From positions 128,001 to 192,000 of IMG/VR virus record IMGVR_UViG_3300023218_000040: a stretch of DNA of 64,000 bases. One strand, given 5' to 3'. Every line of letters starts with the position of its first letter. Positions within the stretch are counted from its first letter, which is position 1. A program made the translations under genes and the position numbers. Origin of the DNA: a virus. Taxonomy: Duplodnaviria > Caudoviricetes. The notes under the pieces were generated by a model, which saw nothing but the letters and a program-made list of their open reading frames with translations, was not told where the DNA came from and searched no databases. This document shows positions 21,491 through 57,358 of this stretch, in pieces.

Positions 21491-21860
21491 ACAGTTGCTT
21501 GAGCGAACACTTGAAGCTCTACGGACGGCGGTTCGATTCCGCCCATCTCCACTAAACGATGGACATAGAGTAGCAGTGAGTGTACACCGGTACTCTATTT
21601 TCATTAGCGGCAGATAACGCACAACTGCCACATCTCTGGGGATGCCCTGGTTTTGACGTGGTGATGGATGGCTAGTAGTGAGACTGTCGGGTTAGACTAC
21701 CCCCGTAAAGGTTCACCCAAAGTATCTGCAAACGATGCTGTATATGACGAGGAGGTTCTTCCTCTCGCTGCATAAGCGGGAGCCAAGAATTCCTACTGCG
21801 GCTTAACAACCCGCAACGTCCGGGGTCTAACGAGCCTTGTTACCAAAATCCTAGAAAGGG
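21491..21860 (+). ncRNA. ssrA: Circularly permuted two-piece tmRNA
   Basis: Acceptor piece first (T-arm GGCGG-TTCGATT-CCGCC, CATCTCC-A ending 21551), intervening segment, then coding piece from GGGGATG (21638); stem GGGGAUG/CAUCUCC has G3.U70 and A73; tag ORF 21728-21775 ANDAVYDEEVLPLAA*; piece boundaries approximate. Confidence 0.92.
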
Positions 21861-40261: not shown

Positions 40262-42016
40262 ATGAAACTCCTGGAGTTCCTGGACATCATTCGGGAGGAT
40301 GACACCAGCGAACCCGGAAAGTTTGTTGGAGCCCGCCTTACCCGAGAATCTGAACGCAATCTCATGCACTGGATGCGTGAGACGGGCTTGCGTAAGCGTG
40401 TCCCACGTGCTCGTCTCCACATCACCGTCATTGGCGATAAGACTAGGAATTTCGATTGGACTCCCGCTGTATTTGATCCACCCCTAGAAGTCGATGCTTC
40501 TACGTATAAGCTTCAACGCTTCGGGGGTGAGAATGAGTGCGTCGTTCTGACGTTTTCCTGCCCTGAGCTAGAGAAACGTCATAACAAGGCACGTAAAGAA
40601 CATGGTATCCATTATGACCATGACCACTATCAGCCACACATTACTGTTAGTGTCGATCCCAAAGAACTGAATAACCTGGAGAGCCTCCTTCTTCCTACCT
40701 TCCCGCTGTATATCGACCGAGAATACGAGCAGCCTTGGGAACACAAATTCAATGAGAGTTCCGAGCGTCGTCGTAAAGAACGTACTAACGAAGATATTCT
40801 ATTCGAGCGCAACCTGCTGAATCCTGAAATGGCGATAGATGCTGCTGATCGTTTCTCTGACTCTTTTGCTCAGTTCGGTGTGCATGTCGCTGAATGGGCA
40901 AAGAGATCCATGCGAAAGTATGTCATCAACAATTTCCCTGCTAAGAAAATCATACAGTACGAGTTGATGGATATCATCCCTCCTGACGCAGACAAACAGA
41001 AGATTGTTCAGGGTGCTGCTGTCATTCAATATCCAAACGACCCTGAAACATTCGGTATCCTGAGTGGACGCACTCAAGAGCAAACTCTGTCATTGCCAAT
41101 CTGGGCTGCAAATGCTCTCCAACGGGGCGAAGAGATATACTTCCTGGACAGCAAAGCCATTTTTGGAAGGGGAGGACTGGATTATCAAACACGGATGGTT
41201 GCAGACTGGTTCAGAAATTTGTCACGTACTAATCCACAGTTGCTTGAGCCACATCGACTCAACAGAATGTCTTGGGCTCAAGCTCTTCAAGGTACCGAGA
41301 AATATCACGAAGAACTCAAACGTAGAAAAGAAGCAGACATTGAGGAAGAGGGAGACAAAGAACTGTACCTGGACCTCGGACAGAATGGTCAATGGTGGAA
41401 GCTAACGGGACCATCATGCCTTGACCGTGAAGGTAACTTGATGGGTCACTGTGTTGCAGATTACATCGATGATGTAGAAAGCGATGAAGCAATCATTCTG
41501 TCACTTCGTGACTCTAAAAACAATCCACATGTTACTGTGGAACTTCGTCCGTTTGAGATGAAGGATGCACAGGGTATTGCAATCGAACAAATCAAGGGTA
41601 AAGAAAACGAGCCCCCTGTGAAGAAGTATTGGCCGCAGGTTGAAGAATTACTCAAACACTTGAAGAGTGAGACCACCATCACGGCTGGTGATGGCATGGG
41701 AGAAGAAGACCTCTTAGCAATGGGTATCATCATTGTTCCATTTGATGACAACGCAATCATTCGAGTGTCAGCAACGGGAGATCCCGGTGACCCATTAGAT
41801 TGGAGTATTGAAATCAAGGGCGTGATTATCGACATGGGCAAGGAGATGGACTACGAGGAAGAAAGCACAGTGGAAGAATTCTCCAACGACAACAATTTGA
41901 ATCCTCAAGAACTCATCTACAACTTAGCCAAGACCGGTGAATATCGAATCGAGGGGTTTGATTCGGATCTCGTAGTCTATCCAACGTATTCATGGTCGAT
42001 GAAAAAGATTGGTTAA
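40262..42016 (+). CDS. Fusion of T4 gp57B/Acb1-like 2H phosphoesterase (anti-CBASS-like) with a PcfJ-like domain
   Basis: FVGARL...VPRARLHITV...VVL.F....L..RH..AR...DH..YQPHITVS...P...DREY.QP matches the recalled T4 57B pattern with two HxT motifs; LDREG..MGHCV..Y...ILSLRD..N.PHVTVE...IEQIKGK.N is PcfJ-like. Confidence 0.75.
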   Translation: MKLLEFLDIIREDDTSEPGKFVGARLTRESERNLMHWMRETGLRKRVPRARLHITVIGDKTRNFDWTPAVFDPPLEVDASTYKLQRFGGENECVVLTFSCPELEKRHNKARKEHGIHYDHDHYQPHITVSVDPKELNNLESLLLPTFPLYIDREYEQPWEHKFNESSERRRKERTNEDILFERNLLNPEMAIDAADRFSDSFAQFGVHVAEWAKRSMRKYVINNFPAKKIIQYELMDIIPPDADKQKIVQGAAVIQYPNDPETFGILSGRTQEQTLSLPIWAANALQRGEEIYFLDSKAIFGRGGLDYQTRMVADWFRNLSRTNPQLLEPHRLNRMSWAQALQGTEKYHEELKRRKEADIEEEGDKELYLDLGQNGQWWKLTGPSCLDREGNLMGHCVADYIDDVESDEAIILSLRDSKNNPHVTVELRPFEMKDAQGIAIEQIKGKENEPPVKKYWPQVEELLKHLKSETTITAGDGMGEEDLLAMGIIIVPFDDNAIIRVSATGDPGDPLDWSIEIKGVIIDMGKEMDYEEESTVEEFSNDNNLNPQELIYNLAKTGEYRIEGFDSDLVVYPTYSWSMKKIG

Positions 42017-52791: not shown

Positions 52792-52820
52792 TTGACTTCC
52801 AATTCAAGGAGTGATAAATA
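52792..52820 (+). promoter_or_regulatory. Promoter of the atypical tRNA(GUA)
   Basis: TTGACT-17 nt-TAAATA, 12 nt before the RNA 5' end. Confidence 0.65.
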
Positions 52821-52832
52821 TACAAAACACAT

Positions 52833-52921
52833 GGGTGTTTTTCCCCACTCTGGTCTGTAAAACCAGCGTCAAAAAACCGTGGGGTGGTAGACGGGAGGTT
52901 CGATTCCTTGAACACCCACCA
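52833..52921 (+). tRNA. Atypical D-armless tRNA-like RNA with GUA (Tyr) anticodon, 8/4 acceptor/T geometry
   Basis: GGGTGTTT/GAACACCC + A-CCA; anticodon arm CTGGT-CTGTAAA-ACCAG; variable stem CGTC/GACG; T loop TTCGATT; only 9 nt between acceptor and anticodon stems. Confidence 0.75.
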
Positions 52922-52924
52922 AAT

Positions 52925-52950
52925 AAAAAGGCTCCTTCGGGAGCCTTTTT
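52925..52950 (+). terminator. Rho-independent terminator
   Basis: AAAAAGGCTCC-TTCG-GGAGCCTTTTT. Confidence 0.9.
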
Positions 52951-53032: not shown

Positions 53033-53260
53033 ATGTACAAGGACGCTTACGCAATTCTGGAGGAGGAGTCGCCGTGCGACACGTGCGAGAACTTCATGCA
53101 GTGCCGTTACGAGCCGCTCGCCTGCAAGGACTTCCTGGACTACACGAACGACGGCAAACTGGTCCGCTACGACGACGAGGGCAACGAGATCGAGGGCAAC
53201 AAGGAGCCGAAGCGACGCTACTACAAAGTGCTCTTCCCGAATGACCAGATCACCGCCTGA
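53033..53260 (+). CDS. Small Cys-containing hypothetical protein
   Basis: GAGGAG RBS; PCDTC....QC......C..F..Y. Confidence 0.65.
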   Translation: MYKDAYAILEEESPCDTCENFMQCRYEPLACKDFLDYTNDGKLVRYDDEGNEIEGNKEPKRRYYKVLFPNDQITA

Positions 53261-53266
53261 AAACAC

Positions 53267-53295
53267 TTGACAAACGGGATAGAGGAGAGTATAGT
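53267..53295 (+). promoter_or_regulatory. Sigma70-type promoter upstream of an ORF-free structured region
   Basis: TTGACA-17 nt-TATAGT. Confidence 0.7.
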
Positions 53296-54656: not shown

Positions 54657-54880
54657 ACGTGACAACGACCGCTGAGGAGACATTCACCCTTGAGGACAGC
54701 CAGGACATGGCGCTTATGGTCTACCGTCGATTCGGCTACGATCTGTGCGCCGCCACGGCTGCCTGGAGGCGCATGCTTCAGAACAATGCCACTCGTGGGG
54801 ATTATCTGGATCTCCTAATCGGTGCTGCGGCTCGTCAACCGGCAAATCGTGACATCGCTTCTATTCTCAGAAAGGATTAA
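54653..54880 (+). CDS. Hypothetical protein
   Basis: AAGGAG RBS, ATGA overlap. Confidence 0.65.
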   Translation: MNVTTTAEETFTLEDSQDMALMVYRRFGYDLCAATAAWRRMLQNNATRGDYLDLLIGAAARQPANRDIASILRKD

Positions 54881-56007
54881 ACCACAACCAGTCCGTGCGA
54901 GGGCAGTAGCTCTCGCAGGACGTAATGACGATAGTAGCTGGCTGCTTTCATGAATCGGTAGACCGGTAAGTTTAGAATATCGGAACTGGTCTTCATATTC
55001 TTGAAGTTGTTCCACTGCTTATGCCAGTGAACTGAATTATACTCTGGCATTCCATCCTGAAACCCAAATTCGAACCTACGTGCTGCTTTCTTCCAGGCTT
55101 CGGCTCTGGTTTTTTTGTTACCCACGGTAGCCAAGATCCTCTCGATGCGCTGCTTGTGTCCCAAGAACCGCATCTTGCTCTTGCGATCATAAACCTCGGG
55201 ATGAACATCTACATATTCAACTAGCTTGTCATAAACTGTCTCACACGCTTGCATGTATGTCTGTGGATTATTTCTCCAAATGCGTTCTGCATTCTTTGGA
55301 TATTCTGGAATATAGCTCCACTCCAAGAATGGGATATCGGGATACGTAGATACTCCACCGTGGCCTAGTGCTCCACTATAGATTTCACTGACACCACTAA
55401 TCACGGAACGAATATTAGACAGCAGACCACCTTGGTAGCCGTATTCGTTGAACCATTCTGAAATAGTACGACCCAAAGCCATACGTACTACTTCTTCTGA
55501 TTGTCTTAGCTTGAAGGAATCTCCACGAACACGATTTCGACGGGAAGACACTCCAGAGAATCTATAATGAGCGAAGGTATCCTGGAATGTATGAAGACTG
55601 ATGCCCATCAATTCTGCATGGTAGTCAGCTTGGCAGTTGATACTGTTTTGTATCATCTCTTGTGCGATAAGAGAATTCTTTCTACAGAGGAGACGTTCGG
55701 TCCACGCTTCGCCCTGATTACCTGGAATGAAATGAAATGGAACCCAGATGAAACGTTGGTCATCCTCATCTCTATTTCTTAGATTGCCAGGGTGATGAGC
55801 GGTCGGGATAGCGACTATTTTTCCGCCATCCTCGTGATCACCGATTTCACGAGCGGTATTATCATCAACGTACTGGGTCGAGTACGCTATGATGTGTGAA
55901 GTTTCAGCATTGATCCCAGCGATACGTGATAAACAATACGTACCGTAATAATGCATGTCTACCTGCATGGGCCTTTTTCTTGTTATTTGCCGTGGCTCTA
56001 TGGCCAC
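54877..56007 (-). CDS. DUF6765-like hypothetical protein (possible Zn phospholipase-C-like fold)
   Basis: DMHYYGTY..SR.AG......IAY..QYVD, TAHH, PFHF.PG, LH..QDTFAH, GH. Confidence 0.55.
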   Translation of the reverse strand: MAIEPRQITRKRPMQVDMHYYGTYCLSRIAGINAETSHIIAYSTQYVDDNTAREIGDHEDGGKIVAIPTAHHPGNLRNRDEDDQRFIWVPFHFIPGNQGEAWTERLLCRKNSLIAQEMIQNSINCQADYHAELMGISLHTFQDTFAHYRFSGVSSRRNRVRGDSFKLRQSEEVVRMALGRTISEWFNEYGYQGGLLSNIRSVISGVSEIYSGALGHGGVSTYPDIPFLEWSYIPEYPKNAERIWRNNPQTYMQACETVYDKLVEYVDVHPEVYDRKSKMRFLGHKQRIERILATVGNKKTRAEAWKKAARRFEFGFQDGMPEYNSVHWHKQWNNFKNMKTSSDILNLPVYRFMKAASYYRHYVLRELLPSHGLVVV

Positions 56008-56015
56008 ACAGGTAT

Positions 56016-56756
56016 TTAGTCTAAGAAGTTGCTGGAGAACTCCACTGCGTTTTCACTCTGGGCCTTGGTGTATTTGGTAAGTCCGGTCCAGTCGCCATCA
56101 AAGATCTCATCAGCCAATCCCCAATCCACTGTTTCCTTGGCAGTCAGAAATACATCGTCTTTTCGGCGCATCTGTTCCATGAGCATGTCAGCAATCCATT
56201 CTGATTTTTTCTTGGAGAACTTTCCACCTTGCTTCATGCGACGGACATAGATTTCCAACATCAGGCGGTTAGTATCTTTGTAGAACTCCATCCCGGACAT
56301 GACAGTACGCATGTTTCCTTCATCCCCATAGGTTCCCTCATGAAACATGAAGTGCGAATTGGGCATCATGACTCTCTTAGTCACAGCCTGGAAAATGATG
56401 GAAGACATCGACCGGGCGTGAGAATAGTTCAGGATCGTGGTATCATGAGGATAGGAGATGAGCATATCGAACATGGCCATGCCTTCGATCCAATCTCCAC
56501 CGTTGGTCTTCATGTGGATCACGACTGGACTTTGAGAGGTCTTCATACACAGATGCATATTCAAAACAAAGCGATTGGCCATCGTGAAATTGACACCGGG
56601 TTCAGCATCTCCATAAGCATCAGTTCCGGCCAGATTGTGATCACCGAACAGATAGATGTGGTTGTTTTGAATATCCAGATGATATTCTTGCATGCGATAA
56701 ACCGGATCTTCCGCCTTATTCAATTTCACCTTATCGGTATTGTCAAATTTAGCCAT
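56016..56756 (-). CDS. clpP: ClpP-like protease proteolytic subunit
   Basis: IH..T.GG....G.A.FD, ARSMSS (Ser), KR.MMPNS.FM.H (His), D.FL.A.E...WGL.D.I. Confidence 0.8.
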   Translation of the reverse strand: MAKFDNTDKVKLNKAEDPVYRMQEYHLDIQNNHIYLFGDHNLAGTDAYGDAEPGVNFTMANRFVLNMHLCMKTSQSPVVIHMKTNGGDWIEGMAMFDMLISYPHDTTILNYSHARSMSSIIFQAVTKRVMMPNSHFMFHEGTYGDEGNMRTVMSGMEFYKDTNRLMLEIYVRRMKQGGKFSKKKSEWIADMLMEQMRRKDDVFLTAKETVDWGLADEIFDGDWTGLTKYTKAQSENAVEFSSNFLD

Positions 56757-57278: not shown

Positions 57279-57358
57279 GCCCCTGTATCCCCTCGGGTTT
57301 CTACCCCGATGAAAGGGTAATTGGACACATGCGGGTTCGAATCCTGTCTGGGGCTCCA
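57279..57358 (+). tRNA. Atypical D-armless tRNA-like RNA with UCU (Arg) anticodon
   Basis: GCCCCTG/CTGGGGC + T-CCA; TCGGG-TTTCTAC-CCCGA; 7 nt (TATCCCC) in place of the D arm; 21-nt variable region with GGG and AATTGGA; GCGGG-TTCGAAT-CCTGT. Confidence 0.75.

Follow-up and report, generated by a model that had tools for sequence, protein, structure and literature searches.

A gene of 89 nt at positions 52833-52921 of the 64,000-nucleotide stretch of phage DNA analysed here (hereafter the window; features lie on the + strand unless noted) probably encodes a working phage tRNA-Tyr(GUA) whose core is not a cloverleaf. In place of a D hairpin, the strand that enters the anticodon stem appears to pair with a strand in the loop of the variable arm. 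The window comprises bases 128001-192000 of a 204-kb IMG/VR record with a CheckV completeness of 55%, and therefore belongs to a jumbo-phage fragment.

At its ends and at its anticodon the gene reads as an ordinary tRNA. The 8-nt acceptor strand GGGTGTTT (52833-52840) pairs with GAACACCC (52910-52917) through seven Watson-Crick pairs and one U-G pair, with A73 (52918) and an encoded CCA (52919-52921) completing the 3' end. The T arm (GAGG/TTCGATT/CCTT; 52895-52909) combines a 4-bp stem with a loop of the T-Psi-C type, and the anticodon arm (CTGGT/CTGTAAA/ACCAG; 52850-52866) has a 5-bp stem and a 7-nt loop with U33, the anticodon GUA (52857-52859) and a purine at position 37. The interval between the acceptor and anticodon stems holds 9 nt only, TT CCCCAC T (52841-52849): a UU linker (52841-52842) at the site of positions 8 and 9, the strand CCCCAC (52843-52848), and U52849, through which that strand runs into the anticodon stem. 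Because there are only nine nucleotides here, the local D hairpin that a cloverleaf forms between positions 9 and 26 is not possible. The perfect complement of CCCCAC is distant: GTGGGG (52879-52884) lies inside the variable-arm loop, enclosed by a stem of CGTC (52867-52870) and GACG (52890-52893). The A-rich linker AAAAAACC (52871-52878) precedes this strand within the loop, and a D-loop-like UGGUA with a conserved GG (52885-52889) follows it. A preliminary description of this DNA had listed the 8-bp acceptor stem, the 4-bp T stem, A73, CCA, a perfect Tyr anticodon arm, the 9-nt replacement of the D arm and the CCCCAC/GTGGGG complementarity followed by TGGTA; each of these features is present where it had been placed.

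Relatives of the gene, amounting to at least 82 distinct sequences from 102 viral, metagenome and cultured-phage loci, were gathered by pattern scans of viral, metagenome and genome collections and with a covariance model. A first exact-pattern search for relatives gave no match, neither of two neighbouring proteins led to related loci in synteny searches, and blastn searches with two other family subtypes against cultured phages returned no match. The viral contigs that carry family members range from 4 kb to 424 kb. Among bacterial genome contigs there was one copy, on a 19.6-kb contig of an alphaproteobacterial MAG, in a scan with the pattern of a rare TGGTA subtype that has little bearing on bacteria as a whole; in 150 further genomes from the same class as this MAG, a model search found no copy.

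All of these sequences follow one plan. The 5' half consists of an 8-bp acceptor strand, UU, six bases starting with CC, one base and the anticodon arm; the middle of one strand of a 3-6-bp variable stem, an A/U-rich linker (in every member, mostly of about 7 nt), six bases ending in GG, and YGG with 0-3 further bases; and the 3' half of the return strand of the variable stem, 1-2 bases, a 4-bp T stem with its loop, the acceptor 3' strand and A73. The search patterns fixed TT, CC, the anticodon loop (including GUA) and GGTTCGA, and thus imposed much of the T loop; these elements are therefore not countable as conserved. The UU linker was not a requirement when the first 10 relatives were gathered and is invariant in them, and the member on contig L018 has AT. 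Features that the patterns left free include A73 (80 of 82 sequences), G1-C72 (81 of 82) and an encoded CCA (61 of 82). The identity set of bacterial class II tRNA-Tyr comprises A73, G1-C72, the anticodon GUA and a long, stem-bearing variable arm. The family carries this set, with the stem in 81 of 82 sequences and GUA imposed by the search.

Folding of the single sequence (minimum free energy -27.7 kcal/mol, z = -0.43) does not recover a tRNA shape, and the structural case therefore rests on the relatives. When the first ten sequences were aligned with MAFFT, the 6-bp helix was 96.7% paired, with five of its six pairs changed on both sides; RNAalifold predicted this helix unprompted, and none of 500 shuffles reached the whole-structure measures. 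Across all 82 sequences the helix is 99.2% paired and occurs in 43 sequence types. It is perfect (6/6) in 78 of the 82, versus 12.4% in a cross-sequence control that set each 5' strand against the best window of other members' sequences. The variable stem occurs in 42 types and spans 3-6 bp in all members but one; its mean length of 4.43 bp, compared with 3.23 bp across sequences, was reached by none of 2000 permutations. The anticodon stem is 99.5% paired and covaries, as do all eight acceptor pairs, and compensatory changes occur in all five helices. Since the eighth acceptor pair covaries (GC in 49 sequences, UG in 17, AU in 9, UA in 6 and CG in 1), the 8/4 acceptor/T layout is real, and since both the 6-bp helix and the variable stem covary across relatives, the CCCCAC/GTGGGG pairing stands above chance. 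Covariation among homologs was one of the checks that the preliminary description had called for, and its outcome upholds both a D stem rebuilt by pairing with a strand of the variable-arm loop and the 8/4 layout.

The 6-bp helix has one strand inside the variable-stem hairpin and the other outside it. The fold would thus be an H-type pseudoknot if both helices form together, a coexistence that covariation alone cannot settle. The D-loop-like segment is similarly retained: in 73 of 82 sequences the helix is immediately followed by YGG, and GG lies no more than one base beyond it in 80 of 82, without having been imposed by the search patterns. This retention fits the D-loop role proposed for the GG at the outset and is suggestive of a D-loop GG that contacts the T loop. 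The role is suggestive at most, because two members, on contigs L018 and L132, have no GG after the helix, and one of them, with UGUGU in its place, has a normal T loop. In the other (L018:5751-5839, of the Tyr class), neither the GG segment (AAGUU) nor the T loop (AGCGUUA) is canonical, a double change that may represent paired loss of the elbow contact.

The gene is flanked by its own putative transcription signals. A phage tRNA promoter motif, TTGACT-N17-TAAATATAC, with TG one base ahead of the -10 element, lies at 52792-52823, 10 nt upstream of the gene. The motif occurs three times in the window (starting at 52792, 57071 and, with one mismatch, 62921), and zero matches were expected by chance (100 shuffles). 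The second copy stands 11 nt upstream of a tRNA-Glu gene and the mismatched copy 16 nt upstream of a tRNA-Cys gene. In a plain sigma-70 consensus scan, the promoter at 52792-52823 did not pass. An intrinsic terminator hairpin followed by a T run (52925-52950; -20 kcal/mol, z = -5.5) lies downstream, where terminator-type Rfam look-alikes also match. The recurrence of the motif before two ordinary tRNA units, together with this hairpin, agrees with the earlier proposal of a stand-alone unit with its own promoter and terminator. The window is contained in three sequencing runs, all of them DNA metagenomes.

ARAGORN found 12 tRNAs and a permuted tmRNA in the whole record, with no tRNA-Tyr among them. 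The tmRNA, of the circularly permuted phage type, lies at 21491-21775 (Rfam tmRNA_permuted, 95.4 bits). A near-consensus promoter, TTGACA-17-TATAGT (53267-53295), is found just downstream of the tRNA-Tyr unit and a small ORF (53033-53260), and a gene for a DUF6765 protein (54877-56007, minus strand; E = 3.9e-85) adjoins a Clp-protease-like gene (56016-56756) between two tRNA units. At 40262-42016, close to the tRNA region, is a counter-defence gene whose predicted product of 584 aa combines an Acb1 anti-CBASS domain at the N terminus (PF23474, E = 5.9e-22) with a PcfJ-like domain.

Genes of this kind are nearly invisible to standard tRNA finders. ARAGORN made no call on the rewired tRNA-Tyr gene, and under relaxed, intron or mitochondrial settings it returned either no call or an implausible mitochondrial one of 61-64 nt. 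The Rfam tRNA model (RF00005) did not match the gene at its gathering score (29 bits), nor up to E = 10, and the copy in Pseudomonas phage Rembedalsseter scored 26.3 bits against the same model, under that cut-off of 29. The sole signal from the tRNA clan was a weak match to tRNA-Sec (RF01852; 24.8 bits against a cut-off of 47), which arises because the gene has an 8-bp acceptor stem and a long variable region; a tRNA-Sec identity was rejected on this score and on the anticodon, which is GUA rather than UCA. ARAGORN recognises one of the 102 family loci, and GenBank records are blank or wrong for rewired tRNAs, as in Streptomyces phage Mildred21, where a rewired Arg tRNA is labelled tRNA-Phe. 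Scanners had been predicted to miss or misname such genes, and they do both, so that phage tRNA repertoires are undercounted.

The family is represented in cultured phages. The genome of Rembedalsseter (complete, 45 kb) carries an unannotated gene that is closely related to the window gene (77% identity), has its own TTGACA/TATACT promoter and is the sole tRNA-like gene of that genome. In Bacteroides phage crAss001, a variant with a 7/5 layout, a CATCA/TGATG helix, a D-loop-like UAAUGGA and a CTCC/GGAG variable stem fills the sole long unannotated gap in an array of 23 tRNAs without an annotated Tyr. Placement within tRNA arrays is the rule for the family (93 of 102 loci, where ARAGORN finds 1165 tRNAs). 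Arrays at 30 loci cover 14 or more isotypes; 3 of these loci include a canonical tRNA-Tyr and 23-29 include each other isotype, counts that are not independent insofar as the array loci may be close relatives; this near-absence of canonical Tyr from near-complete arrays indicates that the odd gene fills the Tyr slot. The share of Tyr among all array tRNAs, 1.1% compared with 2.4% in control phage arrays, gives only a weak, non-significant signal (Fisher p = 0.15), and the presence/absence comparison on near-complete arrays is the more informative of the two. The complete 364-kb phage G008 carries a canonical tRNA-Tyr together with the odd one, as do some other phages, and the odd gene is therefore not always the sole Tyr tRNA. 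ARAGORN also reports in G008 two tRNAs, one with the four-base anticodon tttc and the other with CUA (227532-227606 and 363408-363482), as well as a tmRNA, which may point to recoding.

From the sequence and the family comparison we infer the following course of expression, processing, charging and decoding, together with the stacking of helices and the contact between the GG and the T loop. Transcription would start at the phage's own tRNA-type promoter and end at the intrinsic terminator; RNase P would then remove a short 5' leader, and the 3' end would be trimmed to the encoded CCA. The 8-bp acceptor stem would stack on the 4-bp T stem, giving the 12 layers of a canonical 7 + 5 arrangement. 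The six bases after UU would pair with the six in the variable-arm loop, creating a substitute for the D stem that prolongs the anticodon stem; the variable stem, 3-6 bp long, would close around one strand of this helix, yielding the H-type pseudoknot. The GG after the helix would be placed to act as G18 and G19 at the elbow. A TyrRS/TrpRS-family gene was found in one of five large phage records, so that the host TyrRS would have to charge the tRNA, and a phage-encoded TyrRS as its general matching partner was rejected on the same count. The host enzyme would charge it by way of A73, G1-C72, the anticodon GUA and the variable stem that the gene has kept, and the product would read UAY codons.

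Alternatively, as the preliminary description had raised, the RNA could fold as described and never decode, serving instead as a decoy or inhibitor of a host factor that recognises tRNA-Tyr, such as a variable-arm nuclease, though we consider this unlikely. Septu PtuAB and retron-Eco7 both cleave tRNA-Tyr in its variable arm (positions 48/49) and so deplete it, and both systems are countered by phage tRNA-Tyr genes, which rescue infection; the tRNA-Tyr of T5 is reported to resist cleavage through its distinctive variable loop (PMC13096335, PMC11555353). Non-decoding mimicry would also be compatible with a rewired gene kept as the single tRNA-like gene of a 45-kb phage, with phages that have the rewired gene plus a canonical tRNA-Tyr, and with the Acb1 anti-CBASS domain in the window, which places counter-defence genes nearby. 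However, the published rescue required a translationally competent tRNA (PMC11555353). Moreover, the family keeps A73, G1-C72, an acceptor/T arm with all 12 layers and, in most members, CCA, a set larger than a decoy of a variable-arm nuclease would require. The decoy reading is further disfavoured by the make-up of near-complete phage tRNA sets, where the gene occupies the Tyr slot and replaces the canonical gene in 27 of 30 arrays.

A second gene in the window, a class I tRNA-Arg (UCU) at 57279-57358, is rewired as well. It comes third in a Glu-Glu-Arg operon. Its sequence UA U CCC C leads directly into the anticodon stem, and the stem is followed by UGAAA GGG UAAUUGGA, such that a 3-bp helix (CCC/GGG) encloses the anticodon arm and is followed by the D-loop-like UAAUUGGA. 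In 35 relatives of this class the helix is 98.1% paired, and all three of its pairs have changed on both sides. The Arg type represents this rewiring in an unknotted, class I form: the strand beside position 9 replaces D-stem positions 22-25 and enters the anticodon stem, while its partner and the D-loop-like segment come after the anticodon arm. Tyr and Arg types alike have a covarying helix with a strand 3' of the anticodon arm and a GG segment next to it, and they occur together in the present phage and on contig L018. The Arg type differs in having a 3-bp rather than a 6-bp helix, a 7/5 layout, no variable stem, a nested fold and a long UAAUUGGA segment. Its relatives carry five anticodons (ACG, UCU, UCG, CCU and GCG), every one of them Arg, which would fit decoding rather than mimicry of one target.

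Relatives of the Arg type are found in Streptomyces, Microbacterium, Rhizobium and Vibrio phages and are mostly unannotated. In Mildred21 (L133:2501-2576; MF155946 91367-91442), the gene recorded as "tRNA-Phe(gaa)" is a tRNA-Arg with a relocated D arm and a CUUCGAA anticodon loop (UCG), and it is unannotated in sister phages. Two loci (L074:7476-7565 and L042:3796-3885) hold an intermediate Arg(UCU) form with an 8-bp acceptor, a CCCC/GGGG helix whose linker is 13 nt long, a D-loop-like AAUUGGA and perhaps a short stem of CTC/GAG; its plan is Tyr-like and its identity Arg. A further viral element recurs at L088:4012-4089 and on contigs L095, L101, L104 and L111, with a D-loop-like GGTAGA ahead of CTGTAAA ACCAG, then GGTGGTATAAAT and a T arm, and it may represent another unusual tRNA type.

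The class I relatives also bear on whether the two helices of the Tyr type coexist. The 6-bp helix and the variable stem could be alternative pairings, each adopted in a state or at a step of its own, such as one during processing or charging and the other on the ribosome. Covariation shows that each helix forms at some time and nothing more, and the 3-5 nt that alone join the helix to the variable stem are tight. Nested energies are -26.0 kcal/mol with the helix only and -21.0 kcal/mol with the variable stem only, and each helix is therefore viable alone. We nevertheless regard this reading as quite improbable, as the segment from the anticodon stem to the 3' strand of the helix measures 11-12 nt in 53 of 82 sequences, as for one compact fold, and the linker and loop lengths are kept within a narrow range. 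The class I relatives, furthermore, make do with the helix alone, and the variable stem of the Tyr type is thus best seen as an added, co-existing element, as in class II identity.

That the gene is a decayed tRNA-Tyr pseudogene with chance complementarity is highly improbable: rejection by tRNA finders and an unremarkable single-sequence fold might suggest decay, but 82 distinct sequences with compensatory changes in five helices, a promoter and terminator of its own, and presence in cultured phages of unrelated hosts argue against it, and covariation effectively refutes it. A permuted or split gene that is reordered later was rejected, as the two acceptor strands follow the usual order and the gene spans just 89 nt.

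The proposed tRNA-Tyr shares much with known class II tRNA-Tyr (E. coli tyrT/tyrU and the tRNAs of T5 and T6): G1-C72, A73, the CUGUAAA loop, a variable arm with a stem, a TTCGA-type T loop and a seat in phage tRNA arrays. E. coli tRNA-Tyr likewise has UUCC after the acceptor stem, as in the rewired gene. Unlike these tRNAs, the rewired gene has no D hairpin and instead forms a 6-bp D-like helix with a variable-loop strand, its acceptor/T layout is 8/4 rather than 7/5, and its predicted fold is a pseudoknot rather than a cloverleaf.

Other unusual tRNAs resemble the rewired gene in part. Allo-tRNA and tRNA-Sec folds (8/4, 9/3, 8/5 and 9/4) have in common with it an 8-bp acceptor, a 4-bp T stem, 12 layers and a long variable arm. 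These tRNAs have a normal D arm and Ser or Sec identity. Membership of the allo-tRNAs was rejected for the present gene, which has the 8/4 layout with a covarying eighth pair but lacks the normal D arm. The tRNA-like structures of TYMV-type plant viruses and tmRNA are also tRNA-shaped RNAs with a pseudoknot. There, the knot either forms the acceptor arm or is located beyond the tRNA-like part, and none of these RNAs is known to serve as a codon-reading adaptor. The animal mitochondrial tRNA-Ser(AGY) likewise has no D hairpin and is yet a functional tRNA; there, the arm is simply lost and co-evolved mitochondrial factors are needed (PMC4013460, PMC9427863). The rewired gene, in contrast, rebuilds the helix from another strand and would have to use the machinery of its bacterial host.

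The tRNA-Tyr-cutting systems described above offer a tentative explanation for why the core was rewired. An L-shape with another strand topology could serve the bacterial ribosome and could have been selected as a cut-proof tRNA-Tyr, its variable arm, the site of cleavage, being buried or reshaped by the pseudoknot. This hypothesis, which we put forward as possible rather than probable, leaves the Arg class unexplained. If true, protection from nucleases by rewiring would constitute a new counter-defence, in which a target escapes by refolding.

Our search of largely open-access literature found no published description of rewired Tyr or Arg tRNAs, and a 2024 paper treated all known bacterial tRNAs as canonical cloverleaves. 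Phage tRNAs with a rebuilt D stem would be the first non-cloverleaf tRNAs to work with the bacterial translation machinery. Working tRNAs of this type would tell topology from shape in the tRNA core, and they would supply ready scaffolds for orthogonal tRNA design.
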